Origin: a virus
Lineage: Duplodnaviria > Caudoviricetes
DNA: 52,588 nt
IMG/VR virus record: IMGVR_UViG_3300037234_000222
Location: 1-52,588 of that record
Strand: one strand, 5' to 3'
Shown in pieces: positions 10,152-47,100 of the stretch. A program made the position numbers and the translations under genes. The notes beneath the pieces are model-generated. The model did no database searches, was not told where the DNA came from, and saw nothing but the letters and a program-made list of their open reading frames with translations. Numbering within the stretch: the stretch's first letter is position 1; every line of letters starts with the position of its first letter.

Positions 10152-10372
10152 AACACCACCCCAACAAAACAAACGGCCTAAAGAGAACCAGAATCATCAT
10201 TAAGTCACTTGGAAAGGTGGTGGATGATTTCACAATACCAAAGTATCAGGCTGTCAAATATTGCCGGGCGCATCCTAATGGGAAGTACGGTAAAAGATTC
10301 GCATTAGCTGAGGAGATCGCTAAGAAGCGGGATGAATGGCTTAAGGAGATGGAGAAGAATGAGAAAATTTAG
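10139..10372 (+). CDS. hypothetical protein
   Basis: GAGG RBS, overlapping chain of small ORFs. Confidence 0.55.
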   Translation: MQILEHHPNKTNGLKRTRIIIKSLGKVVDDFTIPKYQAVKYCRAHPNGKYGKRFALAEEIAKKRDEWLKEMEKNEKI

Positions 10373-10529
10373 AACTGAGGAGTCGCCTACGCCTTGTGGG
10401 GAGTGTGAGTGTTACCATAATCACCACCTAGCATATTATTATCAGTGCAAAGCTGGGAGATGTCTTGTTCTTTTCAAGGGCGAAACCATTAGGTTATGCA
10501 AAGACTTTAGGAGGAAAGATGGAAATTAA
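10359..10529 (+). CDS. small Cys-rich protein
   Basis: CGEC..C...C...C; GGAG RBS. Confidence 0.45.
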   Translation: MRKFRTEESPTPCGECECYHNHHLAYYYQCKAGRCLVLFKGETIRLCKDFRRKDGN

Positions 10530-10713
10530 ATGGAAAAGACAAGAAAACGACCTACCAGAACATTGTGAAGAAGTCTGGGTTCTGCGTGTAGATGGAAGCG
10601 TTGATACAGATTGCTTTTATAATTATAACGGGTGGAGAGAGTACAGTAAATCAAAAGTAATCGCATGGGCCAGCATCCCAAAGAAAGAAGACATTATACA
10701 GGATATTTCATGA
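10519..10713 (+). CDS. DUF551-like protein (paralog of 26182-26385)
   Basis: W.....LPEHCEEV...CFY...GW...VIAWA.IP. Confidence 0.6.
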   Translation: MEIKWKRQENDLPEHCEEVWVLRVDGSVDTDCFYNYNGWREYSKSKVIAWASIPKKEDIIQDIS

Positions 10714-10913
10714 AAGCAAAACTAACAATTGAGCCGGGGTGTGAAGCTGGCAGTTTGTATTGTGGGGAGTGTCGGAATCTAGGGGATATTGGATATTTCT
10801 CTTGTGATCAGTTTTCAACAAAACAAAGCATGATGAGAGTTCTTCGTTCAAAACAAGGAAAACCTAAACGCTGCCAACCCTGCCTAGATGCAGAACAAAA
10901 GGAGGAGAAATGA
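10710..10913 (+). CDS. Cys-rich small protein (paralog of 17653-17979 and 33157-33477)
   Basis: KLTI...C...SLYCGEC...C...RCQPCLDAE. Confidence 0.6.
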   Translation: MKAKLTIEPGCEAGSLYCGECRNLGDIGYFSCDQFSTKQSMMRVLRSKQGKPKRCQPCLDAEQKEEK

Positions 10914-11161
10914 TTGACCCAACTACTGCGTGGACTATAATTATTTGTGGAGTGCTTTTTTGCTTACTCGTTTTCTTATTCCAATGTAGTTACGGACTTG
11001 GGCTATCGTATATACTCGTATGTTTTATTGTTATGGTATCTCTTATTTTTTCCTTTGCAGATTATTCAAAGCAAAAAACAGGTAGTTATATTACAATAAC
11101 TTGTTCTCAGAAATGCGTTTCTAAAATTCTTTCTAACTTGGAGAAATCACATGAAAATTAA
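10910..11161 (+). CDS. small membrane protein
   Basis: Two hydrophobic helices; GGAG RBS. Confidence 0.5.
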   Translation: MIDPTTAWTIIICGVLFCLLVFLFQCSYGLGLSYILVCFIVMVSLIFSFADYSKQKTGSYITITCSQKCVSKILSNLEKSHEN

Positions 11162-11420
11162 ATTACTAACCGCAATCCTGCTCTTGTGGGGTTGTGTTGC
11201 TTTTGGGGGTGAGGTTCAAGACAAGGTGGCCTCTTTTACTCTTGAATGTATTAAAAACGGAAATCCAATGTCAGATGAGGAACCTGAAGATTTAATTAAG
11301 GAATGCAAAAGAACAGCATTTGCTATCTATTGTGTTGTAAACTGGGCTGGCGTGCCTGATTGTGCATACAAAAAGAAGGCAGTTGTACCTAAGACCTGTG
11401 GGGGTAAAGATGGCAACTGA
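11151..11420 (+). CDS. secreted Cys-containing protein
   Basis: Signal peptide; CIKNGNPMSDEEPEDLIKEC motif. Confidence 0.55.
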   Translation: MKIKLLTAILLLWGCVAFGGEVQDKVASFTLECIKNGNPMSDEEPEDLIKECKRTAFAIYCVVNWAGVPDCAYKKKAVVPKTCGGKDGN

Positions 11421-11562
11421 CCACGCAAAAAGACAGCTCAAATCAATGGCTGCAAAGAACAAATATTGGAATTACCAAGATAAGCCCTATAGAGGGTTTA
11501 AAATTACTCGTGAGGCGTTGAATGAGCGGGTTGAAGAATTTAAACTTAGGAAGGGGAAGTAG
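11410..11562 (+). CDS. small protein with SutA-like C-terminal helix
   Basis: TREALNERVEEFKLRKGK. Confidence 0.4.
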   Translation: MATDHAKRQLKSMAAKNKYWNYQDKPYRGFKITREALNERVEEFKLRKGK

Positions 11563-11563
11563 G

Positions 11564-12013
11564 ATGAAAATTTATTGTTGTGATTGTGGGAAGAAAGTAT
11601 CTGCAAGGCTAACGGATGGAAAAGAAGTATATCCGCACAGGAAAGACCTCTGCAAATTGCCTTTCTGGAAATGCGATTCATGTGGTAACTTTGTTGGATG
11701 CCACCATAAAACAGGAAACAGAACGGCCCCGCTTGGTGTAATTCCAAGCCAAGAAATCAAAGAGATTAGAAAAGAGATTCATACTATTATTGATCCTCTT
11801 TGGCAGGAAATGGATATTGACAGGTCTGATATTTACTCTAAAATTAGTGACAAATTAGGCTACGAGTATCACACAGCAAACATTAGAACCGCCAAAGAAG
11901 GTGAGAAAATATTAAGTATTGTAAATGAACTGTGTAGGCAAGATTTCACAAGTAATTCAATGAAAAGATTAACCTCATACGCAATGCTAGGGTCAGCTTT
12001 CTTAGGCGATTAA
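11564..12013 (+). CDS. DUF3268-like zinc-finger protein
   Basis: CCDCG....L.DG.E.YP.R.DL....FW.C..C..FVGCH.....PLG. Confidence 0.8.
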   Translation: MKIYCCDCGKKVSARLTDGKEVYPHRKDLCKLPFWKCDSCGNFVGCHHKTGNRTAPLGVIPSQEIKEIRKEIHTIIDPLWQEMDIDRSDIYSKISDKLGYEYHTANIRTAKEGEKILSIVNELCRQDFTSNSMKRLTSYAMLGSAFLGD

Positions 12014-15810: not shown

Positions 15811-16524
15811 TTAGTTAATCTCCACACCATGCTTCTCTTTAGCATAGCTTTTAAGTTTGCCGTAAAGATCGGTTTGATCCTTTTGGTTATCGGTTTCTTT
15901 GGCCTTGTTCATGGCGATCGCTTTATGCTCAATGGCCCTCAGTTTGTACTGCTCATCAAGGGTTACTAGGGCTTTGACCTGTTCGCTGTCTACCACTGCA
16001 ACCTGTTTGAATATCTTTAGGGCCTTCTCTGTTGCGCCTACTAGGGTGGATATAGCGTTAGCCTCTTCCATGGTGATACCTTCATCATCAGCTTGCTTAT
16101 CGATGCGCTCTAGCTGCTTTCGGGTAATGTTGGACATGTAAAGAAATATCTTAGAACCGTTCTCAAAGCCCTTAAGCCCATCCTGCATACACTCGTTAAT
16201 GATCTTGGTTGCCTCTTCGGGTCTTTCCGTTCCACCCCTTCCAGATAGGACTATTACCTGATTGGCCTGTTTGATCTCCTTCTTAACCTCTTCAAGTTTC
16301 TTCTTTGCCTTGCCTATGTTTTGGCGGTCTACATGCTCTTGAGCTAGGTCTCTCCACTTGGATGCTTCTTGCCTAAACCGACCGAATGAGAAAGGTAGTC
16401 TCTTCTCCTCAAAGAAGGCTTTTGCGTTAACCTCGTTCCTTTCCTTGCACCACTTATAGAAAGTTAATTCTAAGGCTCTCCAATCCCCTTGGTTGTATCG
16501 TTTCTTCTTCTTTTTCTCTGCCAA
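15811..16524 (-). CDS. probable terminase small subunit
   Basis: Basic N-terminus, helical, upstream of terL, own consensus promoter, GAGGTG RBS with TTG start; position-based call. Confidence 0.55.
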   Translation of the reverse strand: MAEKKKKKRYNQGDWRALELTFYKWCKERNEVNAKAFFEEKRLPFSFGRFRQEASKWRDLAQEHVDRQNIGKAKKKLEEVKKEIKQANQVIVLSGRGGTERPEEATKIINECMQDGLKGFENGSKIFLYMSNITRKQLERIDKQADDEGITMEEANAISTLVGATEKALKIFKQVAVVDSEQVKALVTLDEQYKLRAIEHKAIAMNKAKETDNQKDQTDLYGKLKSYAKEKHGVEIN

Positions 16525-19854: not shown

Positions 19855-20220
19855 TTAAAAATTTAAGGTTTGATGAACATTACCCGCAACTGTAAAATTA
19901 AACATAGACAAGGGCCTGTCACCATTTAAACAGAAAACTCCATTTAAATACTCAACTACATTCCCGAACTGATCATTATCACCTTCATAAATATCTTGGC
20001 CATTCTGGTCTTTTATCTCTGTGAATTGCCCCACAGTACCATCCAACACATGAAACCTCCGCCTAATATTGAACCACCCGCCATTGCCGAAGCTGTCAGT
20101 TACGATCCAATATTTTGTATGTTGCTTTGGCTTGTGCTTTACCCATGAAGTTGTAACGACAAGGCTTCCATATACAAACACGCCGTCTTTTGTCATTCCT
20201 CTAAACTTGTAATCTCTCAT
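19855..20220 (-). CDS. YopX-family protein
   Basis: MRDYKFRG...VYGSL...TVGQFT..KD.NG.DIYEGD...V.GN.H. Confidence 0.85.
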   Translation of the reverse strand: MRDYKFRGMTKDGVFVYGSLVVTTSWVKHKPKQHTKYWIVTDSFGNGGWFNIRRRFHVLDGTVGQFTEIKDQNGQDIYEGDNDQFGNVVEYLNGVFCLNGDRPLSMFNFTVAGNVHQTLNF

Positions 20221-20808: not shown

Positions 20809-21000
20809 TTAAACTTCTTCTGGAAAAAGCTGCTTATTGACGGATTCAAGCTGAGTTTTCCAGTCAAAAGATTCATGGAGCAATTTTAATTCATTGTGGT
20901 TTGCTGGCTGAGATTTAGAAAGTTTTTTTGCAGCAGCCTTGAGGTTGCTTGGCATTTTTTCAAACTTGTTTGGGCCTTGAACTTTTACTTGGTTTTTCAT
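20809..21000 (-). CDS. hypothetical protein, first gene after a repeated promoter
   Basis: GGAG RBS. Confidence 0.55.
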   Translation of the reverse strand: MKNQVKVQGPNKFEKMPSNLKAAAKKLSKSQPANHNELKLLHESFDWKTQLESVNKQLFPEEV

Positions 21001-21014
21001 AATATTCTCCGTTT

Positions 21015-21091
21015 AAGTTAGTGTTGCGTTGTTGTTGATTAGATATTCTCAGAATGGATTTATTTTGTCAACTAATAAAAAGATTATTTTA
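21015..21091 (-). promoter_or_regulatory. repeated promoter/leader, copy 1 (TTGACA-17-GAATAT)
   Basis: Near-identical to 35604-35680. Confidence 0.75.
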
Positions 21092-21103
21092 GAACTATTC
21101 TTC

Positions 21104-21448
21104 TTACACCTGATTTAGCATTCTTTTCTTAACTTCCTTGGTTCGCCTGATCAGCTCAATCCATATCTCATGTTCTTTCCATTTCTCCGCATAGGTCATT
21201 ATACCTTTGTACTTCTTGTATTGATCCCTTTCAGCATGGCATACATGGCACAAGAAAGCAGTTTCTTCATCATCCCCTTTGCTTCCCATGCATTTGCCGT
21301 ATTCATGCTGTAGGGGGCCAGTATAATGCGCTGAACAGATTGTGCCATCATTCACCCCGCACGAAACACAGCTCTGATTTCTAGCATCAAGCTCTTTTTT
21401 ATCCCTTTTGCTCTTCTTCTCCTTTCGTCCGGGCTTAGCCAGTTTCAT
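21104..21448 (-). CDS. Zn-binding HNH-like nuclease (DUF1364/DUF968-like)
   Basis: CVSCG......AH.......MG.KGDD..TAFLCHVCH. Confidence 0.7.
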   Translation of the reverse strand: MKLAKPGRKEKKSKRDKKELDARNQSCVSCGVNDGTICSAHYTGPLQHEYGKCMGSKGDDEETAFLCHVCHAERDQYKKYKGIMTYAEKWKEHEIWIELIRRTKEVKKRMLNQV

Positions 21449-22143
21449 ATAGGTAAACTCATTTGAAACTCATCGTATTTTGCCGCTTTCTGCAAATTCT
21501 CTTTTGCTGGCAATAGTCTTAAATTATCTAAACCCCAGCACCGCTGAAAATCTATGCAATAATAAGACGTTATGTTAAAAACTGAAACAGGTATAATATG
21601 ATCTATGTGCAATTTATCAAAATCATCCCAAGTGTAGCCATCTGGCATTGTCTTTGTTAAATAAGCTACCAAGTCATTCCTCGTATACCCTACTAATTTT
21701 TCCCAAGAGCTGCCATCTTTTTTATTTCGTAAAGATTGCCTTACGAGATTAGACATCCTTCTCTTTAAAATATAAGAAGGTTTTTTCTTGTTCTTCTCGT
21801 GTCTTTTTTTATTTTTTTTTGATATATTTTTAGCGTTAAGTATTGAATATTCTTTATTTCTTTTTGTTATTTTTTCTTTATTTTTTTCGCTATACTCTCT
21901 ATCATATTTTGATTTTCTCTCTTTATTTTCCTTATACCACATCTTAGCCCTCTCACGATTTTCTATTTTATTTTTTGAATTCATTAACTTTGAGCACTCT
22001 TTGCAAGAATTACTTTTTGCATACCTTGGCGACTCATGCCCACGATTACACTTTTCAAGAGGAACAAATGTTGCTTCACCATCACTAATAGCTTTTAATC
22101 TTCTTCTGTGGGACTCTTCTGAAAGTACTTTTAAATTAGGCAT
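21445..22143 (-). CDS. HNH homing endonuclease-like protein
   Basis: C.RGH...R......C.EC, HIDHIIPVS.F...CW.LDNLRLL.A.ENL.K; AT-rich; own promoter TTGCAA-17-TATCAT at 22238-22266. Confidence 0.8.
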   Translation of the reverse strand: MPNLKVLSEESHRRRLKAISDGEATFVPLEKCNRGHESPRYAKSNSCKECSKLMNSKNKIENRERAKMWYKENKERKSKYDREYSEKNKEKITKRNKEYSILNAKNISKKNKKRHEKNKKKPSYILKRRMSNLVRQSLRNKKDGSSWEKLVGYTRNDLVAYLTKTMPDGYTWDDFDKLHIDHIIPVSVFNITSYYCIDFQRCWGLDNLRLLPAKENLQKAAKYDEFQMSLPI

Positions 22144-22160
22144 AACTATAAAATAAAAAA

Positions 22161-22231
22161 CCCCCACCTAAAACCGAGTTTGCGAGAACCAGTGGCCTTA
22201 AATGGGGGCATTAAATCTTTTTGGTTCTCGC
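22161..22231 (-). promoter_or_regulatory. interleaved inverted-repeat leader (attenuator or pseudoknot candidate) upstream of the HNH gene
   Basis: GCGAGAACCA 22182-22191 / TGGTTCTCGC 22222-22231 interleaved with CCCCCA 22161-22166 / TGGGGG 22203-22208, followed by a U-tract. Confidence 0.55.
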
Positions 22232-22641
22232 TCAATTATGATAACTTAAATGGCTCAGTTTTGCAAGCTATAAATCATCCTTAAACCTTTCTATCTGTTC
22301 GTCATCAACCTCGATAATAAAAATCCTATCATCTTTTGTGAATTGAAACCTCGCTAATGCTTTGAATGGGTCAAGTTCTGTTTTGATTACCGCCTTGATT
22401 TCTGATCCATCCGCTAGAACTACGGCTAAGATATATTGTTTCATAGCTTAATTACCCCTAATTAACGGTTTAGCAAAAACACTTCCCTTCCTTTGCAGAA
22501 TTGATATGCCACAGCCTGAACACACTACAATATATAGTCCATCCCTTGCAAATGGATCATCTTTCTGGTTCCATTTAACCTTATTTTTGTTAACGCAGCA
22601 AGGGCATTCATAAGGATACTTTGACGGTTTTAATTCCTCAT

Positions 22642-23523
22642 TCATAATTCAATTACCTCCCCCTGCCTAGAATAACCCCGATAGTCATTCCCGTTTTTAA
22701 AATCAATGTACCGATTCCAGCCCTTTAGAATTACCTGCCAGCCTTCATCTAGCATTTTCTCTGTCATTCTATATACTTCAGTATTAAAAGGCTCGCAATT
22801 TTCTGTTGCCACTATGAAAAAATCATTGACGTTTAACCCTAGAGCGTTTGCAACTTTCATATAGAGCGATGCCGAACTGTGGTATCCATATTTCCAAACA
22901 TCCCTCTTAAATTCCCACGGCTCAGAACTTTTAGCTGATTTCAAATCAACGATATACCCGCCGTTTTCATCCTTCATTCTATAATCTGGCCTGATCTTGA
23001 TTAGCAAGTCGCCTTCATAATCTGGAAAGATTTTGCTTGCCTCGATCATTAAGCTCTCTTCCACCTCCCAGCTATCGCCTTTCTTATAGATGTACTGGCT
23101 GGCCTCTGGATGGGCGTAAAAGCTCTTTTTCATGGCTTCTAGCGTGTCTTTTTGGGCTTGGTCGATCAACAATAGCTTTCCTTTTGCCTCCGTTTCTTGT
23201 TTCTCCACAAGTTTTTTTAATTCTGGAAGCTTTAGCTTTTTCAGCTTACCATGGCTGCAAATGTAGCTCAAGAAATATCTCTCTAAGAAAAGGTATAGCT
23301 GCCTATTCCCCTTTAGCGTTGCCCTATTCACCTTCGGCAATACAAGCGAACGGTCAATGTCTTCAAGGATGAAGTCGTGGAAAATTGTTCCAAGGTTCAT
23401 TTCCTTTGAATCTTTGCGCTCTTTGTTCCAATCGTTGATAGACCTAGCTAGGGCTTTGAAGTCGGAGCTTGAAAGGCTGTTGGCTAAGGCGTGGTATTCT
23501 TCGTTACTTAGGCGTTTTTTCAT
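22642..23523 (-). CDS. RecE/exonuclease VIII-like PD-(D/E)XK nuclease (DUF3799 type)
   Basis: NEEYHA...LSSS, GTIFH..ILE, KIRPDY...IVDLKS, YGYH..A..Y. Confidence 0.88.
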   Translation of the reverse strand: MKKRLSNEEYHALANSLSSSDFKALARSINDWNKERKDSKEMNLGTIFHDFILEDIDRSLVLPKVNRATLKGNRQLYLFLERYFLSYICSHGKLKKLKLPELKKLVEKQETEAKGKLLLIDQAQKDTLEAMKKSFYAHPEASQYIYKKGDSWEVEESLMIEASKIFPDYEGDLLIKIRPDYRMKDENGGYIVDLKSAKSSEPWEFKRDVWKYGYHSSASLYMKVANALGLNVNDFFIVATENCEPFNTEVYRMTEKMLDEGWQVILKGWNRYIDFKNGNDYRGYSRQGEVIEL

Positions 23524-23524
23524 T

Positions 23525-23839
23525 TCAATCCTCTCCTAGCCACCAATTAGGGTGACCGTCAGTATAGTTAATTTCGTCCATTTCCCATTCACTTGTGATA
23601 GCCCCACATTTCCTACAAGCCGATCCATGCCAATATGAGCCGCCACCATAATCATGGGCAAGCTCTACAATTTCATGGCCTCCACAAGTGCATCCTCGAT
23701 TTAGTCCTTTTCTCCAATTCTCACTAAGCTCATCGCTCGTCTTAAAGAGTGGGCGCAATACAATGTCGGATGTGCCATCGTATTCCCACCACCAGATTTC
23801 ACCATCTTCAAATCTGCATTGTCCTTGTGCATGACTCAT
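23525..23839 (-). CDS. conserved hypothetical Zn-binding protein
   Basis: EYDGTSD..., CTCG, YGGGSYW.G.ACRKC. Confidence 0.6.
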   Translation of the reverse strand: MSHAQGQCRFEDGEIWWWEYDGTSDIVLRPLFKTSDELSENWRKGLNRGCTCGGHEIVELAHDYGGGSYWHGSACRKCGAITSEWEMDEINYTDGHPNWWLGED

Positions 23840-23853
23840 ATTTTACTCCTTGT

Positions 23854-23864
23854 TGTGGTTATCA
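23854..23864. repeat. dif-like half site F (TGTGGTTATCA)
   Basis: GTTGTG context at a gene boundary; second arm absent. Confidence 0.35.
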
Positions 23865-23889
23865 GCCCTCTTGGGGCGGGGTTTGTTGG

Positions 23890-24456
23890 TTATCTCCACT
23901 GCTCTTTCATCATGTACCCTTGGATACGATAAGCGGCAGTGGACAAGATTAAGTTTTTCCAATTTTCTTTTGTTTTCTCTTTGTGGAGCTGTGGTGGCTT
24001 GACTACTGTTCTCAATTGCGATTCTTGCACCCAATAGTACAACCCTGCATACTCAGGTAGCAATGGTAAAACCTTATCGACAAGCTCTTTTGGAACTGCA
24101 TATGAGAACCAATTTGGAGACATAATCTGTCCTTCTCGTGAATCAAGACTGCGGCCATTTCGCCCTGAAAGAATCTTATGCTTCCCTTCTTTTTTGAAAT
24201 CCTTTTTGAAGTCGGTTAATGAAATTTTTACCTCTGTTTCTTCAATCAAACCACCTTCTGTCATCGAGATAAAATCGGCTCTCCACATTGGACCACGGCA
24301 CCCAAGTTGGATTTCATGCACACTTAGGTTTCGTCCGTAGAAATTGGAATATAGCGATCCAACAATTGTATCTGCTAACCGGGTAGGGGGTTTCCGTGAA
24401 AGCCTCCCGGTCCCCATGCATTTATCGCAATACGGTTGCTTTTTTATTACTTCCAT
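23890..24456 (-). CDS. MmcB-like PD-(D/E)XK nuclease
   Basis: RADF......EVKISLTDFKKDFKK..KH, PNWFSYAVP, LPEYAGL. Confidence 0.7.
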   Translation of the reverse strand: MEVIKKQPYCDKCMGTGRLSRKPPTRLADTIVGSLYSNFYGRNLSVHEIQLGCRGPMWRADFISMTEGGLIEETEVKISLTDFKKDFKKEGKHKILSGRNGRSLDSREGQIMSPNWFSYAVPKELVDKVLPLLPEYAGLYYWVQESQLRTVVKPPQLHKEKTKENWKNLILSTAAYRIQGYMMKEQWR

Positions 24457-24470
24457 GCTTCTTTCTCAGT

Positions 24471-24498
24471 TGTGGTCATAATAAAGGTTATCTACACA
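24471..24498. repeat. dif-like 28-bp site A: TGTGGTCATAA-TAAAGG-TTATCTACACA
   Basis: 11-6-11 imperfect palindrome with ATAA-N6-TTAT core; overlaps the MTase stop codon. Confidence 0.75.
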
Positions 24499-25211
24499 CT
24501 TTCAATTCGTTCTTGCGCAACCTTGAAATACCCCTCATCATTTTCAATTCCAATGAATTTACGATTGAGGTTTTTTGCTGCTACTCCAGTTGATCCGCTG
24601 CCCATTGTGAAATCCAGTACGGTTTCGTTTTCGTTGGTGTAGGTCTTGATTAGGTATTCTAGTAGGGCTACTGGTTTTTGGGTTGGGTGGACTTTGCCTT
24701 TTTGAGAGGCATTACTTACTTCTAAAATTGCCTTCGGGTATTTATGCGTGTATGCCTTGTTTTCAGTAAAGGCATTATTATTTATCTCAGATTTATTCCC
24801 TTTGTTTCCTCCTCTATATTTTACCTTATCCCGTTTAACCATAATCGGGAAGTAGTTGACTTTTTTACCGCTCTTTTCAAATATCAATATATTTTCAAAA
24901 GTTTTAATCGGTTGTATTTTTGATAACAGAGGATTTCCTCCTTTCTTTTTATCCCACACCCAATCGTACTTGTAATTCTTAATATTACTCATTCTCAAAG
25001 CACTACTAAAAGGCTCACTGCCAAACAAAACGATGGCCCCATTAGGCTTGACAACCCGTTTCAACTCAGACCACATAGGCTCAAACGAAATTATGCTATC
25101 CCATTTGCAGGCCGTGGTCCCATAAGGTGGGTCAGTCAAAATCATATCAACCGACCCCGCAGGAATATCTTTCATCTCCTCCAAGCAATCGCCTAGGATT
25201 AGTTCAATCAT
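24492..25211 (-). CDS. DNA methyltransferase (N6A/N4C, beta class)
   Basis: GDCLE, DPPY, HPTQKPV.LL, VLDFTMGSGSTG. Confidence 0.95.
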   Translation of the reverse strand: MIELILGDCLEEMKDIPAGSVDMILTDPPYGTTACKWDSIISFEPMWSELKRVVKPNGAIVLFGSEPFSSALRMSNIKNYKYDWVWDKKKGGNPLLSKIQPIKTFENILIFEKSGKKVNYFPIMVKRDKVKYRGGNKGNKSEINNNAFTENKAYTHKYPKAILEVSNASQKGKVHPTQKPVALLEYLIKTYTNENETVLDFTMGSGSTGVAAKNLNRKFIGIENDEGYFKVAQERIESV

Positions 25212-25222
25212 GTCTCTCCTGT

Positions 25223-25233
25223 TGTGTTGATAA
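25223..25233. repeat. dif-like half site B (TGTGTTGATAA)
   Basis: Identical to left arm of site C; right arm degenerate. Confidence 0.6.
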
Positions 25234-25241
25234 TAAATATT

Positions 25242-25478
25242 TCAGCTTCTTGTTCCATCACAATACTGCTTCCACAGACCAATCTGCATAAACCCAATAT
25301 TGAATTGAAGCTGAATATCATTGATTAGCTTGTCAAATCCAAGCCAATTTAAGGTAAAAGGTCTATACCATGACATTGAGAAATAAAATTGATTAGTCCC
25401 GCATCGGAAACCCCTTTTGTCATTGTTGAAATAAAATCTTATCCCGCCTTTCTTTTTGTTTTTTATTGCAATTTTCAT
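25242..25478 (-). CDS. hypothetical protein bounded by dif-like sites
   Basis: AAGGA RBS; lies between sites B and C. Confidence 0.55.
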   Translation of the reverse strand: MKIAIKNKKKGGIRFYFNNDKRGFRCGTNQFYFSMSWYRPFTLNWLGFDKLINDIQLQFNIGFMQIGLWKQYCDGTRS

Positions 25479-25494
25479 ACTTCCTTTAATTGGT

Positions 25495-25522
25495 TGTGTT
25501 GATAAGGTAAATTATGACCACA
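25495..25522. repeat. dif-like 28-bp site C: TGTGTTGATAA-GGTAAA-TTATGACCACA
   Basis: Right arm is the exact reverse complement of the left arm of site A, so arm order is inverted relative to A. Confidence 0.75.
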
Positions 25523-25523
25523 A

Positions 25524-25862
25524 TCACTCAAGTAACTCAGGGTTTTCATGAATGTTGCCGACAATACGAGCCTGTAAAATTTCGTCATTGACAATAGATG
25601 CAAGGTCTACTTGGCTATCAATTGCCCAAAACCCTCCTTCTGCATCAAAATAAACCGCATGAGGTTCTAAGCTGCCATCTTCTGAGGCTAAGATATCACC
25701 GTCATAGACTTCTTTGCCTTCTATGGTTTTAGCTTCGGTGTATTGTTCAAAAATAAAATACTCATTTGGCTGCATTGGGGATAATTCATTGAATATAACA
25801 TCTTTATTATGTAACATCTCCTGACCACAAATATCCCAAGCTCTAAATTTAATCTCTCTCAT
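25524..25862 (-). CDS. YopX-family protein
   Basis: MREIKFRAWD...QYT.....GKEVYDGDI...IVGNIHENPELL. Confidence 0.88.
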   Translation of the reverse strand: MREIKFRAWDICGQEMLHNKDVIFNELSPMQPNEYFIFEQYTEAKTIEGKEVYDGDILASEDGSLEPHAVYFDAEGGFWAIDSQVDLASIVNDEILQARIVGNIHENPELLE

Positions 25863-26185
25863 TTCCCCTCCTCTACAATTCGCACAGCTTCCATGAGGGC
25901 TTCGATCCAAGAGTTGCCGATCCGTCCGGGTATTCTGTACTGATTAGTACATAGATTAGCTCCACCTAACGGGTTTGGTCGCACTTCATGCCATCCGTTC
26001 TCCCAAAGCCACTCCATAATGTCGATTGCATCTGGGCAGTTGGCTAGAATAAATTTACTTAGCACAGAGTGCCGATAACTTGATTTAGGATAATTCTCTG
26101 AATTCTCAAAAACCAAATCAGTATCCTTAAACAGATGCCCATGCTTCTCACACCAGTCAAGGTTTGGTAGTTTTTCTTGGTTCAT
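25859..26185 (-). CDS. hypothetical protein
   Basis: ORF track; GAGGAG RBS before MNQEKL. Confidence 0.5.
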   Translation of the reverse strand: MNQEKLPNLDWCEKHGHLFKDTDLVFENSENYPKSSYRHSVLSKFILANCPDAIDIMEWLWENGWHEVRPNPLGGANLCTNQYRIPGRIGNSWIEALMEAVRIVEEGK

Positions 26186-26385
26186 TTTAACTCCTCTTTT
26201 ACTTGTTCTACTGTCGGGAAAAAGGCCCACCCTAATATTAATTCTTTACCAACATAACATCCACGAATAAACCAACCTTCTCCGTCATAGAAACAACCAT
26301 TTGTGGTTTTTCCTGATTTCATTAGTATGAGAACTTCAAGGCAGTGTTCAGGTAGTTTGTCTGGATTTTTAAATTTTAATTCCAT
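26182..26385 (-). CDS. DUF551-like protein
   Basis: LPEHCLEVLI...CFYD..GW...ILGWA.FP. Confidence 0.6.
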   Translation of the reverse strand: MELKFKNPDKLPEHCLEVLILMKSGKTTNGCFYDGEGWFIRGCYVGKELILGWAFFPTVEQVKEELK

Positions 26386-26398
26386 TTCTCCTCTCAGT

Positions 26399-26460
26399 TG
26401 TGGCGATAATGAAGTTTATAGCCACGATTGTTTGTGGTTATAATCGTACTTATCGTAACC
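26399..26460. repeat. tandem dif-like sites D (TGTGGCGATAA-TGAAGT-TTATAGCCACG, 26399-26426) and E (TGTGGTTATAA-TCGTAC-TTATCGTAACC, 26433-26460)
   Basis: Same 11-6-11 geometry; E overlaps the stop of 26450-26752. Confidence 0.7.
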
Positions 26461-26752
26461 CCTCAAGCCTTTCAGCTTCAATAATTTCCTTTCGGACCTT
26501 TAAATAATGCTCTCTTGTTTCCCTGCTCATCTTGCTTTCAGATAGATATATCCCGATCACAAACATAGGTAAACTTCGCCTTTCGTGGCATACATCCTTT
26601 GAATATCTAGTAGTTATCCCGTTTGGATGTCTGGCCGTTAAACATTCATTTTTAGTTAGTTGGTAAGGGTATCCATGGAATTCTTTATGCTCTTTTGCGG
26701 TAGCTGTAGCCGAAATGATAGATATTGCTATTGTAAGAAAAACCTTATTCAT
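26450..26752 (-). CDS. hypothetical secreted protein
   Basis: Signal peptide MNKVFLTIAISIISATATA. Confidence 0.55.
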   Translation of the reverse strand: MNKVFLTIAISIISATATAKEHKEFHGYPYQLTKNECLTARHPNGITTRYSKDVCHERRSLPMFVIGIYLSESKMSRETREHYLKVRKEIIEAERLEGLR

Positions 26753-26761
26753 TAGCTCCCC

Positions 26762-27130
26762 CTAAGATAAGTACCCTTCAATTACTTTGATTGCGCTTTC
26801 TGAATTATAGCAGATTGCGGTCATGTAATCAACTGATTTTGCATATTCTAAGAATTCTTTTTGGTCTTTCGTTGGCTTATTATTTTTCCATTTTAGCTCA
26901 ATATAAAGCCCATGATAGCCTTTTGATGGAAACGGTAGGCATAGGTCACTTATCCCGTTTGTCATCCCCTCACGCTTCATTTTGATAGCAATATTCCTGT
27001 TTCTCATAAATGCCCCGTTGGGAATACTGTAAAGCCACTTCAAACAAGGCCACTTTAAAACAGCCCCCTTCCTAAGCCCTGAGCCTCTAGCCCATTTAAT
27101 TACCTCGCATTGCTCTTTGTGTTCAGACAC
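26762..27130 (-). CDS. VRR-NUC domain nuclease
   Basis: EH.EQ, YSIPNG, KREG..NGISDL......YHGLYIELK...KPTKDQKEF. Confidence 0.9.
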   Translation of the reverse strand: MSEHKEQCEVIKWARGSGLRKGAVLKWPCLKWLYSIPNGAFMRNRNIAIKMKREGMTNGISDLCLPFPSKGYHGLYIELKWKNNKPTKDQKEFLEYAKSVDYMTAICYNSESAIKVIEGYLS

Positions 27131-27434
27131 TGTTAATCACCCTCCCAATAGTTGAATTGTTTACACCATATTCCTCCATTAAATGCCTATATCTAAGGCC
27201 ATCTTCGCTGAAATACCTTTTTCTGATTACCTCTTTATCCTTTGCGAAAATCTTTTGTTTCCTTCCCCTGTTTGGCATTTTTCGAATCTTCATGCCGTCC
27301 TCTTTATACGTTTTTCCAGTCAGAATAAACCACATTGCAGATTGACTCATTCCATATTTTCTTTCTAACTCTTTGGGTGAAAGGTCTGAATCTCTAATTT
27401 CTCTTACCTGTTCAATCGTCAATTTTCTAATCAT
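27123..27434 (-). CDS. tandem HTH DNA-binding protein
   Basis: KLT.EQVREIR...L..KYG.SQ..I..GKTYK repeated unit. Confidence 0.65.
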   Translation of the reverse strand: MIRKLTIEQVREIRDSDLSPKELERKYGMSQSAMWFILTGKTYKEDGMKIRKMPNRGRKQKIFAKDKEVIRKRYFSEDGLRYRHLMEEYGVNNSTIGRVINSV

Positions 27435-27637
27435 CCGTTTAACCTCCTTGCAGTTCTCTCACCTTGCCTTTCAAATGAATTTTCAATTGCTCTCTTTATT
27501 GTATCCGCACCTACGCCATATGCCCGGCTAAGGGACGCAGGCGTTACGCTCTTGTCACCTGTCATATAGTCATCTTTTATCGCATCCTCTTGCGCTTCGG
27601 TAAATTTTTTATTATTTCTATTTTCCAGTGCTACCAT
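27431..27637 (-). CDS. HTH protein
   Basis: KFT..Q...I...Y......L...YGV..DTIKR. Confidence 0.55.
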   Translation of the reverse strand: MVALENRNNKKFTEAQEDAIKDDYMTGDKSVTPASLSRAYGVGADTIKRAIENSFERQGERTARRLNG

Positions 27638-27646
27638 TTATCCCTC

Positions 27647-28105
27647 CTAGGCATATCCTAAAACAGCGTTTACAAGTTCGTCTTCGCTGTATTGATCTAA
27701 AAAATGCTGCAAAATTGCATCAATCGTTGCAGAATAAAATTGAGCAAATTCAGCCTCCTTCATGCTGCCAAAAGAAATTGACTTTGCAACCTTCTTCACC
27801 CCTTTGCAGCCAGCGACCACTTCATAGTGACCCGCCAAGATAGTTACCTCCTTTCTGAATGTCTCTTTATTCTTTTGGACAATCTGTCCTTTGAACTGAT
27901 TGTTTTCAGTTGGCTCCCAATTATCATAAGCAAAAAGAACCAAGTCCCACCATTTCTTGAAGAATTGATAATTGCGCTTGTTCATCCTTGTACACTTGGC
28001 CTTGATCGGTTCACCAATCTTGTAACTTGCCACCTTCTCCATTTCATTTTCATTGATTGGGATTAGGCTTAGATTCGGACCTCTCATTAGTGTAATTTCT
28101 TCCAT
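27647..28105 (-). CDS. DUF1367-family (NinB/YbcN-like) protein
   Basis: RNYQFFKKWW.L, FRKEVTILAGHY, KSISFGSM.E.EF..FY. Confidence 0.85.
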   Translation of the reverse strand: MEEITLMRGPNLSLIPINENEMEKVASYKIGEPIKAKCTRMNKRNYQFFKKWWDLVLFAYDNWEPTENNQFKGQIVQKNKETFRKEVTILAGHYEVVAGCKGVKKVAKSISFGSMKEAEFAQFYSATIDAILQHFLDQYSEDELVNAVLGYA

Positions 28106-28345
28106 TTACTCTGACCCGGACCGGGGGGTATAACCAGCCCTAGAATAAGCAACACCAGTGTTGAATTCCCAAGCCTCATAGGTTTGATATGTTGTTTTCA
28201 GCTTCTTAATCTCGCCGCCTTTCTTCTTAAACTCTTCGATTTTTCCGGATAGTTCATCTTGGCTGATCTCGAAGCCTCCTTTCTTGTCTAGCATGTTTTG
28301 AATTACTCCTAAATCTTGTGCTTTTTTAAATGGCTTTACTTTCAT
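28106..28345 (-). CDS. small protein with SutA-like RNAP-binding motif
   Basis: DELSGKIEEFKKKGGEIKKL. Confidence 0.5.
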   Translation of the reverse strand: MKVKPFKKAQDLGVIQNMLDKKGGFEISQDELSGKIEEFKKKGGEIKKLKTTYQTYEAWEFNTGVAYSRAGYTPRSGSE

Positions 28346-28494
28346 CTGTTACCTCGAACAGTTCTAAAATCTCTTTAACTTTCTTTTCCCTGTACTCTCT
28401 TTGATCGGTTATTCCGTGTTCTGTTTCATATTTTTCACACCTGTCATTTAATTCTTTTATAATTTCAGGCATCATCTCTTTTAACGTAAACGGT

Positions 28495-29817
28495 TTAGAA
28501 TTCTGTAGGGTCTTCATAATTAATCTCTTTAAATTTTCCGTATTTATTTTCGACTTGAAGAAAAGTGTACCCTCTCTTTCCTGCTCTTGCTTTTGCAATG
28601 ATCAATTTATCCCTTACAGTTCCATCTTCACCTTCAATTTTATGAAGGAATAGGACATTGTTTGCATCTTGCTCGATTGATCCGCTTTCTCTCAAATCGC
28701 TTAAAATAGGCTCTTTATCTTTTCTTTGATTTGAAGCCCTGTTAAATTGTGAAAGAGCAATGATATGGATTTTATATTTTTGTGCAATCAGTTTAAGCGT
28801 TCTTGTAATATGTGAAATCTCAGCAACTCTATTCCCTCCAAAGTTGTTTCTCGATCTCATTAATTGCAGGTAATCAACTATGATCAGTTTCACTTGCTGC
28901 TTTTTTACAAGCTGGCTAGCCATTGCTTCAAAGTCCTCTATTGTAACACTTGGGTCATCAAAAAGGAATAAGTTTTTAAGGAATTCAGCATTATTTTCAG
29001 CAGCTAAATTTAATTTCCCCCATTCCTCACCTTCAAGTTTTCCACTTGATAAATGGAGGCTGTCAATCTTTGACTGCATTGAAAAAAGTCTATCCAGCGT
29101 TTCTTCATTCGTCATTTCAAGACCAATAAATCCAACTCGCTCACCATTTAAAACTATATAGTTTAAAATTGACAATGCGAATAATGACTTTCCGCCACCT
29201 GAAAGAGCCGCTAAAACTGTAAGTTGACCACCAATTAACCCAAGTAAATTTTTATTTATGATTGGGATGTTAGTCTCAAGCCCAACAATACCGTCCTCAC
29301 GTTTACTTCTCTCTTCTAACCTTTCCCAGTATTCAGGTAAAATACTATAAGCTGTCTGCAAATCAATATCATTTGCTGGTAAATCTTCAGCCAACTCATT
29401 GATTCTTGCAATCACAGAATCCCATGGTTTTCCACCTGCTAAACTCTGGCTTGCTTTTGCTAGAATCTGGGCTGTTTGCCTATTCTGACTAGATAGTTTT
29501 ACTTCTTTAATGATATTTTTAAGATCAGAAGCAAAACCGACATCCTTAACTTCATCAACTACAGAATACCACCCACCATTAGGATTGTGATCTGAATGTT
29601 TTTCCAACCATGAAGAAATATTAAACTCATCAGCTACACTACTTTCACGATCTAAAATCTTTATACTTTTGTAAATTTCTCTTATTTCAATATTTGTAAA
29701 ATCTTTTTCATTAATCGAGGCAAACTCATCAATCCCCCTGCCCATGAAGGATTCCTGAATCATCGTTGCTATCAGGATCGCCTCTTCGATCTCCTGATTG
29801 CTTTTATTTTTTGTCAT
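28495..29817 (-). CDS. dnaB: replicative DNA helicase (DnaB family)
   Basis: AALSGGGKS Walker A, LEM, IIVDYLQLM, ALSQFNR, LSDLRESGSIEQDA. Confidence 0.95.
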   Translation of the reverse strand: MTKNKSNQEIEEAILIATMIQESFMGRGIDEFASINEKDFTNIEIREIYKSIKILDRESSVADEFNISSWLEKHSDHNPNGGWYSVVDEVKDVGFASDLKNIIKEVKLSSQNRQTAQILAKASQSLAGGKPWDSVIARINELAEDLPANDIDLQTAYSILPEYWERLEERSKREDGIVGLETNIPIINKNLLGLIGGQLTVLAALSGGGKSLFALSILNYIVLNGERVGFIGLEMTNEETLDRLFSMQSKIDSLHLSSGKLEGEEWGKLNLAAENNAEFLKNLFLFDDPSVTIEDFEAMASQLVKKQQVKLIIVDYLQLMRSRNNFGGNRVAEISHITRTLKLIAQKYKIHIIALSQFNRASNQRKDKEPILSDLRESGSIEQDANNVLFLHKIEGEDGTVRDKLIIAKARAGKRGYTFLQVENKYGKFKEINYEDPTEF

Positions 29818-30212
29818 TAATGGGCCTTATTTTTAGCAAAAAACTCTTCTCTTTTTACTCTGCACAATTCTTTGTACTCCTCAGTTTCCTTGTAGGCTTC
29901 ATCCTTCTCACGCTCTTGCCTCTCTTCTTCGGTTTCTTCTTCGTTCTCATTTTTAACAGCCGCTTTCATCCTGCCTAAAATCTCCTTAAAATGTGAAGGG
30001 AAAGGCATATGATAACCATTATTCCAATCATTAATCAAGATTCTTTTTGCTTCGATTAATTTTGCAAGCGGAATCTCTTTGAAAGTATCAACCCAAAGGG
30101 CTAATAATATTTCTGCTTCTTCTTTGGAATATTTCTTTCCGACCATTAATGACAGTTCCCCTAGAAACTGTACAAAAAAGCCTTCTATGATGTTCTTAGG
30201 TCTGGCCGTCAT
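29817..30212 (-). CDS. probable helicase loader/inhibitor
   Basis: Between initiator and DnaB; LW...F.EIP......P.PS.F pattern. Confidence 0.55.
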   Translation of the reverse strand: MTARPKNIIEGFFVQFLGELSLMVGKKYSKEEAEILLALWVDTFKEIPLAKLIEAKRILINDWNNGYHMPFPSHFKEILGRMKAAVKNENEEETEEERQEREKDEAYKETEEYKELCRVKREEFFAKNKAH

Positions 30213-33783: not shown

Positions 33784-34182
33784 TTATTGACCCAGCAAAT
33801 TCATAAAGTCGTTAATATCATGCTCATCGCAGTAATCTTCAAAGGATTCATGAATATTACCAATGACTTTTGCGCCATCAATGACCGCTGCCGAAAGATA
33901 ATCTTCTGATTTTCCGCCATACATTGGAATACACATGAAGGCGCATGCTTCTTCACAGTATCTAATTTCTCCACATGAGCCATACCCAGCTATTGGCGAG
34001 ACAATATCTCCCTCGTAAATTTCTTTTCCTGAATCGTCTTTCAGCCCGGTGTATTGCATAGGAACGCACCCAACAATATTTCCTTTTCCAAAATAGCAGA
34101 CTGAATTATCATCTGCCTTTGGGGATACGCCATAAACCATTTGTTCGTCTTTTACCCAAGCTCTAAATTTAATCTCTCTCAT
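33784..34182 (-). CDS. YopX-family protein
   Basis: MREIKFRAW...MQYTGLKD..GKEIYEGDIV...VIGNIHE. Confidence 0.9.
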   Translation of the reverse strand: MREIKFRAWVKDEQMVYGVSPKADDNSVCYFGKGNIVGCVPMQYTGLKDDSGKEIYEGDIVSPIAGYGSCGEIRYCEEACAFMCIPMYGGKSEDYLSAAVIDGAKVIGNIHESFEDYCDEHDINDFMNLLGQ

Positions 34183-34529
34183 TTCCACCTCCCATCTTTC
34201 CATAAATAAATCGGGCTATACCGCCAGTTAAGTTTCCAAAATCTTAAAAATTTTATCATTGCACCCTCCTATGCAGGTCTATGATCATCTGTATCTTGGG
34301 CATCATGAATTTGGTCAATGATGATTAATTCTTTCGTGAATTCCTCTTGATCACGCTCTTTAACTTCAACCCAGTCCCAATATGCTTGTTCTGCTAATTG
34401 GTCTTCATCATCTGGGAAGTTAAATAGATCTTCAAAGTCACTCATTCCAATCCTCCCCCATTGAAAAGCCAATGACGTATCCGAAAATAGCTCCGATACA
34501 CAGCAATAAAATCCAAAATTCATGGTCAG

Positions 34530-34937
34530 TCATTTCTCATCTCCATTTGGTGGTTCTGGCAGTAATTGGTAATGAGTCGGGGTTCCCACTAATCTTATCG
34601 GCATGTCGTCCATGGAGTCCGCCCACCAATCCGCTTGCCTTTGTTGATAAATAGCGTCTGGCTCGTACCACCCGATACACGTATTTCCATTCGCCCAAAC
34701 AAGCCAGACCTCATTCTTCTCTTCAGGAAATTGAGGATCAAGCTTAATCCATCTACTGACTCTGGTGTTCCATGTTTTGGCCGCCCCCAATTCAGTTTCG
34801 TTTGCTCCAGAGATATAAATATTGCCGCCAATTATACACTCTTCATTTTTGCATTGAGCTTCAAAATATCCGCTTACCTCTTGCATTTCAGCATAACCCC
34901 CACAAAAAGGACAAGGCTTTAGTTCTTCCTGACTCAT
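34530..34937 (-). CDS. Lar domain fused to DUF551-like domain
   Basis: LKPCPFCGG...WNTR then WI.....PE...PTHYQLLPEPP. Confidence 0.8.
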   Translation of the reverse strand: MSQEELKPCPFCGGYAEMQEVSGYFEAQCKNEECIIGGNIYISGANETELGAAKTWNTRVSRWIKLDPQFPEEKNEVWLVWANGNTCIGWYEPDAIYQQRQADWWADSMDDMPIRLVGTPTHYQLLPEPPNGDEK

Positions 34938-35589: not shown

Positions 35590-35603
35590 GTTTGCCTTGG
35601 TAG

Positions 35604-35680
35604 AAGTTAGTGTTTCGTTGTTGTTGATTAGATAATCGCAAAACTGTTTTATTTTGTCAACAAAGAAAAAGATTATTTTA
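35604..35680 (-). promoter_or_regulatory. repeated promoter/leader, copy 2 (TTGACA-17-GATTAT)
   Basis: Near-identical to 21015-21091. Confidence 0.75.
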
Positions 35681-38578: not shown

Positions 38579-40077
38579 AATTCCGCATCTGAAAAATAAT
38601 CAGTTAGCCAAGTTCCTAGACCTGCCCCTGTTGATATACCTGAAAATGAAAAGCTATTTTCTGTAACATTTGGGTCAGCCACAATTGCAGTTAAATTTGA
38701 ATTTCCTACCAGGCCCGAAATAACTGGAATTCCTCTCATTATACTTGGAAAAAATGATACCCCGCCCCTAGTTAAATTAGTCGTACTATTAAATAATGCT
38801 GGTGCTCTTATTCTTCCATTTGCATAGTCATAAGCATACCTGGATGATTTTTGTAATTCAATATCATAATTTTCAGCAAAAAACCCGGTCTGAACAGTCC
38901 CCGGCCTGATTTTAATCTGATCAATCTCAAGATAATCAGAGGTGTTTGCAGCAATATTAATCCCGCCGCCTGTCTCGGAAATCTTATCGCCAGTCACCCA
39001 AGTTTCAGCCGCCGCCTCAAACCCAGTTCCAGCCGCCAACACGAAGAAGCATCTTAGCCCGGCCCCGTTGATAAAATCCCATGTACCGCCAAGCTCATCA
39101 ATAGGGATTATGAAAGTTTTGGTTTCCTTTGTGGATGCTGAATTGATCGTGTAGGATGAAATATAACTACGGTCATTTCCTGAATTTTGGAAGGCTACGA
39201 AATATTGCCCTGTGATATTTGATTGAACTCTAATTGAAACGGCTGCATATCCATTCTGGTAGTATTTGATTACATTGTATCCCTCAATGATATGCTCCCA
39301 TGCTGCAAAGTCATTCACCCCAAGTGAAGCTTGAGCCGTTGCACAGGTGGCCCTAATAGCTTGCTCACCGAATGATCCTACAGACTGTTGCACTACATTG
39401 AAAGACATAGTTCCAGTCTGCCTATACTTCATCCTATCTAAAGTATAAGTTCCATCCGCAACACCAAGAAAGCTAGTTCCTCTTTGCGCTACATTATTAC
39501 TTGAGTTGATATAATCATTCTCAAAGTTTGGAACGGATTGGATTGCGCTCTTTCCATTCAACCAAAAGTCATTCTCACCTGTGTTTACGATTGCCTCAAA
39601 GTTATCTGATCGAATATCTAAAAGGCTATTTGATCCGCTAAGGATAATGGAATTATCAGGCGCATTCGTGAAGTTCAATCGACCACGACAGCCAGCCCCG
39701 CTTAAAGTGAAAGTAATGCTGGTTAAATCGATTTCTGTATTCGGGTCCATATCGAACCATAGATTCGAAGTGGAAAACGTTACAGCCCCACCGTCAAAGC
39801 TTACAATTGCGATTCTATCACCAGCTATAAATACTACAGGGCTTGCCGCTTCATCTTCAAAGCTTGCCCCGTTCCATTTTACGTTTGCATTGCCCAGAGT
39901 CAAATCAGCCGCAGAGCCAAGAATATAATCTACTCTTTGGGCCTCTTCTAATGCCTGATTGAAATATTCGACCGCAGGAGCTTCCTTTTCAAATCCAGTC
40001 GCTCTTTTAGCTTGAGGGATACTGGCTTTCCATGTAGGCTTTACTGCAAAAAATTTACCGTTCCTAACCCAACTCAT
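38575..40077 (-). CDS. tail fibre / receptor-binding protein
   Basis: After baseplate; GF..E.P..EYFN N-terminus; N.YIN....VAQRGTSF...YTLDR; EL....RY near C-terminus. Confidence 0.75.
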   Translation of the reverse strand: MSWVRNGKFFAVKPTWKASIPQAKRATGFEKEAPAVEYFNQALEEAQRVDYILGSAADLTLGNANVKWNGASFEDEAASPVVFIAGDRIAIVSFDGGAVTFSTSNLWFDMDPNTEIDLTSITFTLSGAGCRGRLNFTNAPDNSIILSGSNSLLDIRSDNFEAIVNTGENDFWLNGKSAIQSVPNFENDYINSSNNVAQRGTSFLGVADGTYTLDRMKYRQTGTMSFNVVQQSVGSFGEQAIRATCATAQASLGVNDFAAWEHIIEGYNVIKYYQNGYAAVSIRVQSNITGQYFVAFQNSGNDRSYISSYTINSASTKETKTFIIPIDELGGTWDFINGAGLRCFFVLAAGTGFEAAAETWVTGDKISETGGGINIAANTSDYLEIDQIKIRPGTVQTGFFAENYDIELQKSSRYAYDYANGRIRAPALFNSTTNLTRGGVSFFPSIMRGIPVISGLVGNSNLTAIVADPNVTENSFSFSGISTGAGLGTWLTDYFSDAEL

Positions 40078-47003: not shown

Positions 47004-47009
47004 TGTATT

Positions 47010-47098
47010 TAGGCGTTCGAGTTATAGGCGTTTAAAAAAGGAAGACGGGTAGAACACGGGTACGCCTAAGAACCCGTAGGAATGGAAACGTCTACCCG
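47010..47098 (-). promoter_or_regulatory. structured RNA element between tube and chaperone genes
   Basis: Nested stems 47046-47053/47091-47098 and 47056-47061/47072-47077; loop complementary to two downstream ACGCCTA copies. Confidence 0.5.
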
Positions 47099-47100
47099 CC

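Follow-up and report, generated by a model that had tools for sequence, protein, structure and literature searches.

A cluster of dif-like 28-base sites at gene borders in a tailed-phage genome and its possible role in host-driven cassette exchange

Why would a tailed phage carry, at the borders of a few small accessory genes, a cluster of 28-base sites built like the dif sites of bacterial Xer recombinases? The question is raised by the virus record IMGVR_UViG_3300037234_000222, whose 52,588 bases (the whole stretch analysed, hereafter the window) are listed as linear with a completeness estimate of 59%, and encode the tail sheath, baseplate wedge, portal, large terminase and major head protein of a myovirus, almost all genes lying on the minus strand. 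The original prediction, made from this DNA alone, saw in the cluster a cassette system served by a recombinase of the host. The Xer-type nature of the sites is now better supported than that prediction could know, through chromosomal sites of the same pattern that adjoin a tyrosine recombinase gene; the function in cassette exchange is one that we infer. The reading in which host Xer-type sites bound exchangeable modules, by analogy with the dif modules of Acinetobacter, is given a probability of roughly 45%.

The sites follow the pattern TGTGNNNATAANNNNNNTTATNNNCACA, in which 16 positions per site are constrained (TGTGnnnATAA-N6-TTATnnnCACA). At up to three mismatches the window contains four matches, all within 23.8-26.5 kilobases (kb), against an expectation of 0.51 (standard deviation 0.66), and none of 100 shuffled sequences reached four. 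The comparison with shuffled DNA, proposed as a test when the sites were first described, thus finds the motif in excess, and the claim that no such sites occur elsewhere in the window stands: all four matches belong to the array and none falls outside it. The positions first given for full sites A, C, D and E are exact, and half sites B (25223-25233) and F (23854-23864, with one mismatch) are present as well (Table 1). The half-site word TTATNNNCACAA, allowed up to one mismatch, shows no overall enrichment (23 found, 20.9 expected); six of its seven exact copies lie within 24470-26443. Sites and half sites together span 2.6 kb, with the four full sites inside 2 kb. Each of these four has what defines a dif site, namely two inverted arms of about 11 base pairs (bp), a 6-bp centre and an inner ATAA/TTAT, with zero to two mismatches; and, as in dif modules, several sites occur on one replicon and pairs of them flank gene modules.

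The sites are closely tied to gene borders. For the genes with starts at 23839, 24456, 25211, 25478 and 26385, the gene-proximal arm stops 11-16 nucleotides (nt) ahead of the ATG, just 5' of the ribosome-binding site; at A, B, C and E the stop codon of the preceding gene is within the site or no more than 9 nt away, the distal arm of site A containing the TAG stop of a methyltransferase gene. These distances and stop positions bear out the early description of the sites as lying between one stop codon and the ribosome-binding site of the next gene. Of the sites, E is the weakest, since its distal arm consists of coding sequence at the 3' end of the open reading frame (ORF) 26450-26752. At half site F, positions 23851-23900 of the window hold two half-site-like words in direct repeat around a GC-rich hairpin (23865-23877). 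The second word provides, with its TAA, the stop of a gene for a 188-residue protein, and 25 nt that include the hairpin separate it from F.

What kind of element is constrained in this manner? Under RNA folding, five of six sites (four from the window and two from a second phage, G001, described below) folded no better than shuffled sequences, the sole exception being D, whose arms match each other; a reading as RNA hairpins or terminators was rejected on this ground. A reading as sigma-70 promoters was rejected likewise, the region having 53 sigma-70-like matches where chance predicts 49.3, and only one of the six sites, A, overlapping such a match (TTGAAA-16-TATTAT). Within a site, moreover, positions 5-7 of the two arms are not complementary. 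Taken together, the folds no better than shuffles, the non-complementary positions and the chance level of promoter matches indicate that the conserved feature consists of fixed positions in duplex DNA, which, judged from sequence, is the signature of a protein-binding site.

That the sites are of the Xer/dif type, as originally proposed, is supported by bacterial chromosomes, where arms of this pattern flag a site that occurs once, at the terminus, next to a gene for a tyrosine recombinase. A motif scan of one genome per prokaryotic species returned at least 120 stretches with scattered single matches, and further lineages may exist; a near-identical 28-mer occurs in three of the listed matches, in metagenome-assembled genomes (MAGs) labelled Deltaproteobacteria, 'bacterium' and SAR324. 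The order examined comprises 24 genomes of the SAR324 phylum, including MAGs labelled SAR324, Deltaproteobacteria and Lambdaproteobacteria, and exactly one copy of the site is present in 14 of them. At one mismatch or fewer the site is found in 12 of the 24, versus 3 of 64 other genomes of the phylum. Second pattern matches in two genomes, G003 and G004, proved to be isolated sites rather than arrays. The DNA flanking the chromosomal sites is AT-rich and not conserved (11 loci). Two of the 14 site-bearing genomes, those with the site on a long contig, were used for a skew test: the site stands at the start of the plateau of cumulative GC skew in G023 and at the skew maximum in G025, where the skew changes from +0.026 on the left side to -0.024 on the right.

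A tyrosine recombinase gene adjoins the site in all three genomes first checked, and in 11 of 13 genomes with an examined locus the site has an orthologue of this gene (55-78% identity) as its neighbour, G021 being outside this count; in one of the two genomes lacking an adjoining gene, the contig ends 93 bases after the site. The distance between site and gene is 3-252 nt. Among the 120 stretches listed, nine adjoin this recombinase family (L065 is counted through confirmation at L229); four of the nine are outside the order, and three of these four are Chlamydiota-labelled. Measured in bits against the curated cut-offs, the recombinase reaches 75 of 220 for XerA, 48 of 335 for XerC, 35 of 267 for XerS and 25 of 330 for XerD. 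Its sequence matches in the PDB are two XerA entries only (E=5e-9 and 3e-4), no XerH entry being matched at E<=0.001, and the family comprises 322 clusters under generic names ('site-specific integrase') or the automatic name 'XerD'. In none of the five genomes checked was an XerC or XerD found above the curated cut-offs. An enzyme so far below the cut-offs for XerA, XerC, XerD and XerS fits the hint, made from the phage sequence, of a 'non-canonical Xer-like enzyme'.

The chromosomal site and its adjoining gene form a candidate single-recombinase Xer/dif system for chromosome dimer resolution. This reading is drawn because their features (single copy, intergenic position, varying flanks, nearness to the terminus) equal the published dif criteria, as listed in PMC9765430; the criteria concern the chromosomal sites and were not applied to the phage. 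Like the XerS/difSL, XerH/difH, XerA and XerL systems, the bacterial counterpart has an AT-rich site of about 28 bp with inverted arms, present once, at the skew maximum, with varying flanks and close to the recombinase gene, a linkage of gene and site described for XerS in a passage of PMC2731167. It differs in its recombinase, which lies far below the cut-offs just given for XerA, XerC, XerD and XerS, the four models that the comparison covered. Across lineages the arms are constant (TGTGnnnATAA), and positions 5-7 and the centre vary (CYTCAA, GGGAAC, TTAGCC, TGCTAA and others). The phage sites follow the same pattern of constraint, and one arm of the G025 site is identical to the Y arm (defined below) of phage site A. 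The likeness between phage and chromosome is one of shared constrained positions and identical arm words, not of score.

The phage, as first noted, has no recognisable recombinase of its own. Profile searches of the window phage and G001 found no tyrosine or serine recombinase and no fragment of the chromosomal recombinase family (best hmmsearch E=0.74), and PF00589 has no match in the window. Binding by a recombinase, recombination and gene exchange at the phage sites are inferred from sequence, and would proceed as follows. The array would consist of dif-type sites for a single Xer-like tyrosine recombinase encoded by the host, and these would delimit three or four small modules of accessory genes within the myovirus's early region. 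Each site would be occupied by recombinase subunits on its two 11-bp arms (TGTGnnnATAA). A synapse would then form between identical sites carried by separate DNA molecules, with strand exchange inside the 6-bp centre. The centres differ among all sites of the array, in agreement with the original prediction, and because every centre differs, the sites could not recombine with one another and the array would be stable. A co-infecting relative, a plasmid or an excised circle bearing the same site could then insert a module through a single crossover or, through two, swap the stretch bounded by a pair of sites. A broader proposal is more tentative and is put below even odds: that lytic tailed phages carry a host-driven cassette platform, in the form of a heterospecific dif-like array, used by an undescribed single Xer-like recombinase of SAR324/Lambdaproteobacteria-labelled and Chlamydiota-labelled genomes. 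By analogy, such a platform would be the natural counterpart of recombinase-mediated cassette exchange and the phage version of dif modules.

In its proposed working, the array comes closest to the Acinetobacter dif modules, which depend on the host XerC/XerD. As these are presented in sections of PMC13141974 and PMC6449649, the likeness extends to several 28-bp 11-6-11 sites per replicon at the borders of small accessory modules, to varying centres, to an inversion by arm type in two pairs of sites (A versus C, and the pair in G001) and to a replicon devoid of a recombinase. The differences are that the replicon here is a myovirus in which no lysogeny genes were found, that the phage arms belong to another family of sites, linked to a single recombinase which is not XerC/XerD by curated models, and that the hallmark of a module, its occurrence in other contexts between the same sites, was not found for the phage cargo. 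Judged by this comparison, membership among the dif modules fails on the hallmark and on the type of recombinase. Integron cassettes (attC/attI, IntI) resemble the phage array in being short, mostly promoterless ORFs separated by recombination sites. They differ in that the phage has no integrase and carries 28-bp sites of duplex type, five of six with no significant single-strand fold (by RNA parameters), and on both counts the array departs from an integron, which has an IntI integrase with attI and folded attC sites.

One other phage bears two full sites of this kind in a single stretch. A scan of viral contigs with the TGTGNNNATAANNNNNNTTATNNNCACA-type motif returned 43 stretches, a total at about chance level by rough arithmetic with an assumed collection size. 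Two full sites were found in only one of these stretches, that of G001 (L021), another contig having given two stretches with a single site each; extra half-site words occur in L039, L040 and a small number of others. L039 is a viral contig whose name is of the GVMAG type; at L039:8765-11300 its intergenic DNA, which is very rich in AT, contains TTGTGACNATAA six times, twice as part of a longer repeat unit, and these words look like a different, promoter-like AT-rich repeat and not an 11-6-11 site. G001 has 42,129 bases and is rated complete; its two exact sites, 190 bp apart, surround a 51-residue ORF and are placed, as in the window, between a stop codon and the next start. The only protein that it shares with the window is a YopX homologue (34% identity). 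Its second site is identical to site C at 25 of 28 positions, and its arm words recur in the window. Among the relatives of G001, no site was found at up to two mismatches in any of 79 loci (1.09 megabases, G001's own locus included), which means that the motif does not serve that phage lineage as a control element. No homologues of the ORFs neighbouring the G001 sites occur among these relatives, and a search of metagenome contigs for its X/Y' type of site matched G001's own contig only.

The regular spacing from start codons is open to another explanation, in which the sites are operators or promoter-associated sites of a dimeric DNA-binding protein, of phage or host, for each accessory gene or small operon, their likeness to dif being coincidental. 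Beside the position of the proximal arm, constant ahead of five start codons and directly upstream of the ribosome-binding site, this explanation can draw on the conserved AC that follows the proximal arm in seven of eight phage arms and is absent from the chromosomal sites, on the single arms B and F, which occupy the same position as full sites, and on the sigma-70-like match at site A. It is nonetheless judged unlikely. That match is the only one among six sites, in a region where such matches are at chance level; among the ORFs scanned, 20 further early ones at E<=0.001 and the array region's 10 at E<=0.01, no helix-turn-helix or repressor family was found; the two motif-bearing phages have nothing but the YopX homologue in common, and the site-free loci of the G001 relatives speak against a lineage-wide control element. 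Furthermore, the arm type turned towards the gene differs between A and C, and the constrained positions match exactly those of the recombinase-linked sites.

The arm types themselves bear on exchange by a host recombinase. The phage arms are of type X (TGTGGTYATAA), type Y (TGTGTWGATAA) or a type specific to D. Site C reads X/Y' and site A Y/X', which confirms the early observation that A and C have the same two arm types in opposite order. When arms are compared across sites, the three pairs that flank a module match at eight of nine variable positions, versus zero to two of three within any one site; this score was reached in 546 of 200,000 permutations and is suggestive only, because the test was framed after the data had been seen. 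The arms of G001 that face its 51-residue ORF are identical to each other, and G001 alone, as an independent replicate of the pairing, would give about p=0.08 by arithmetic from the pool of arms. An inversion of neighbouring sites, with the same arm type inside, is seen for C/A (Y arms) and for the G001 pair (X arms), and D, E, B and F give no reading. The pairing may be a trace left by the insertion of circles, or by alternating inverted sites as in dif modules. Insertion of a circle would involve a crossover between two sites, each with matched arms, and by analogy would be equivalent to the alternating orientation of Acinetobacter dif modules.

The late framing of the arm test and the modest value of G001 as a replicate are among several points that weigh against exchange at these sites. 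B and F are single arms, which cannot be substrates of recombination, and together with the constant distance to the start codon and the AC extension they suggest that the arm may serve gene expression, also or only. None of 82 loci with relatives of the cargo (80 for the methyltransferase and 2 for the 188-residue protein) contains a site at two mismatches or fewer, and DNA similarity of these relatives to the window is confined to the methyltransferase ORF; the same module was thus not found elsewhere between the same sites. Close relatives of the phage are also lacking in the collections searched: megablast of 21000-30000 against GenBank phages gave no match, the exonuclease and DnaB have no relatives in viral contigs, and the tail sheath reaches at most 32% identity in GenBank phages. 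On the host side, a query with window 1-40,000 (40001-52588 not queried) revealed no near-identical DNA in the 24 genomes of the order, only weak matches to conserved genes; the order's own site was not found in viral contigs, and no phage centre equals any chromosomal centre seen. Finally, the check for excision circles and inversions that had been called for was made in the contigs of the only run with this DNA, a marine sediment metagenome that is probably its source, and no deletion or inversion joints were found at the sites, an absence that is weak because contigs drop rare variants. In this run two places coincide with ends of contigs, namely 23849-23878, over half site F and the hairpin, and 25837-25864. 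In one contig of 737 bases, which belongs to a relative with 6 differences in 75 bases, the sequence runs on from 26386 and, after nine other letters, reaches letters fitting 25216; this joint is not among the supported ones, and nothing is drawn from it. The swapping of cassettes by a host enzyme, as originally envisaged, hence retains its Xer-type sites and its phage devoid of a recombinase, but the loci of cargo relatives and the search for joints do not bear it out.

A further point of this kind is that the phage encodes its own ERF (1.6e-24), exonuclease VIII-like PDDEXK protein and SSB-like protein near the array, so that homologous exchange at short repeats would be possible without any Xer enzyme. 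The sites would then be boundary repeats for the shuffling of modules by the phage ERF and exonuclease, like the PeSL cassettes of T4-type phages, in which, as far as extracts of PMC2839356 and PMC4122927 describe them, conserved promoter-terminator motifs mediate modular shuffling. The likeness lies in repeated intergenic motifs that border variable small ORFs in a myovirus. This alternative is improbable, however, as identity between copies is confined to the 16 fixed positions, and variation in the centre and at positions 5-7 keeps its uninterrupted stretches short. The early promoter plus stem-loop of each PeSL copy is likewise missing: a promoter-like match and a hairpin are each confined to one of six sites, and the motif is instead of the protein-type 11-6-11 form. 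The match to recombinase-linked chromosomal sites would be left unexplained.

The presence of dif-like sites in the absence of an integrase also recalls the integrative mobile elements exploiting Xer (IMEX), among them CTXphi, TLCphi and LME-1, which are described in parts of PMC9765430 and PMC5357621 as recombinase-less mobile DNA with a mimic of dif, dependent on the host Xer; LME-1, with XerL, illustrates the use of a single-recombinase Xer (same part of PMC9765430). The phage could accordingly be imagined to integrate at the host dif, its several centres serving several hosts. Such a role is very improbable. The IMEX elements described are filamentous or tailless phages or islands, with one or two sites for integration at dif, whereas this tailed phage has four to six sites at gene borders, and integration needs no sites at every gene border. 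No repressor or other lysogeny gene was found among the window ORFs scanned, neither an integrated copy nor a DNA match was found in the 24 genomes of the order (40,000 of 52,588 bases queried), and the phage centres, as stated, equal none of the chromosomal ones.

What the sites enclose is listed in Table 1. Of the names first given to the cargo, the methyltransferase and YopX are supported by their family matches, whereas two others are not: the 188-residue protein, taken for an MmcB-like nuclease, has no Pfam match at E<=0.01 and only a weak 'DNA repair protein' PHROG (6e-5), and DUF551 has no match in 26182-26385 or 26450-26752. The notion of counter-defence cargo is plausible for the methyltransferase only. 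Relatives of this enzyme with 82-83% amino-acid identity occur in other viral contigs, with at least 591 related stretches, as against the DnaB of the phage, which has no non-self match above 35% among the 120 best-scoring matches listed from 5.8 billion proteins; the methyltransferase cargo, therefore, was probably acquired. Elsewhere in the window, a Lar restriction-alleviation domain fused with DUF551 (34530-34937) is a second likely anti-restriction gene in addition to the methyltransferase. The YopX family has three paralogues in the window, at 33784-34203, 25524-25862 and 19855-20220.

Table 1. Sites of the array, the genes next to them and the chromosomal counterparts (positions in the window unless a locus is named; nt, nucleotides)
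Feature	Position	Strand	Description
Half site F	23854-23864		X-type gene-proximal arm ending 14 nt short of the ATG at 23839; one mismatch
Possible displaced distal arm of F	23890-23900		One mismatch to TGTGnnnATAA; low confidence
Site A	24471-24498		0 mismatches; in gene orientation arms Y then X', centre CCTTTA
Half site B	25223-25233		Y-type proximal arm, the same as in C, ending 11 nt short of the methyltransferase ATG; no distal arm
Site C	25495-25522		0 mismatches; in gene orientation arms X then Y', centre TTTACC
Site D	26399-26426		1 mismatch; two arms nearly match each other; centre ACTTCA in gene orientation
Site E	26433-26460		2 mismatches; 6 bp from D; proximal arm of X type
ORF, 104 residues	23525-23839	-	Downstream of F; no family match
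ORF, 188 residues	23890-24456	-	Between A and F; phrog_2776 (unknown function)
DNA methyltransferase	24492-25211	-	Between B and A; PF01555, 3e-39
Orphan ORF, 78 residues	25242-25478	-	Between C and B
Block of three overlapping ORFs	25524-26385	-	Between D and C
Block member, 67 residues	26182-26385	-	
Block member, 108 residues	25859-26185	-	
Block member, YopX family	25524-25862	-	YopX, 3.8e-14
ORF, 100 residues	26450-26752	-	TAA stop within site E
Chromosomal counterpart loci	L173:1501-2578 (G003); L225-L230, L179-L185, L060, L094, L097, L140, L160, L168		28-bp site with near-palindromic arms and tyrosine recombinase of 320-350 residues (324 residues at L173:1604-2578)

Other parts of the window show features of their own. 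Nine small ORFs (65-163 residues) lie on the plus strand at 9927-12013, between the portal and large terminase genes, against the main orientation of the genome; the GC skew of this island is reversed, two of its ORFs are DUF551-like by eye and its 163-residue ORF is rich in CxxC pairs. Two copies of an upstream sequence of about 50 nt, with TTGACAAAATAAA at the start and the core ATCTAATCAACAACAACG in common, are found on the minus strand at about 35590-35660 and at 21001-21070, preceding the genes that start at 35589 and 21000, and resemble a promoter or leader of host type in repeated form. A perfect sigma-70 consensus (TTGACA, 17 nt, TATAAT) is located at 16592-16564 on the minus strand, upstream of a 237-residue ORF (15811-16524).

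No paper on arrays of dif-like sites in a tailed phage came up in word searches of an open-access library, which do not prove absence, supplement lists of predicted dif sites (e.g. those of PMC3025954, which predicts dif in Chlamydiae) being beyond the search. If the proposed exchange by a host recombinase is true, the hyperplastic regions of phage genomes, at present explained mostly by illegitimate or short-homology recombination, would gain a concrete mechanism of gene exchange that is site-specific and supplied by the host. The exploitation of Xer would extend from filamentous and tailless elements and the plasmids of Acinetobacter to tailed phages, and, with the recombinase and the 28-bp sites defined, the idea can be tested directly. 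Independently of the phage, the chromosomal sites point to a candidate system for chromosome dimer resolution, with a recombinase gene beside a palindromic-armed dif, in lineages where none of five genomes has XerC or XerD above the cut-offs.

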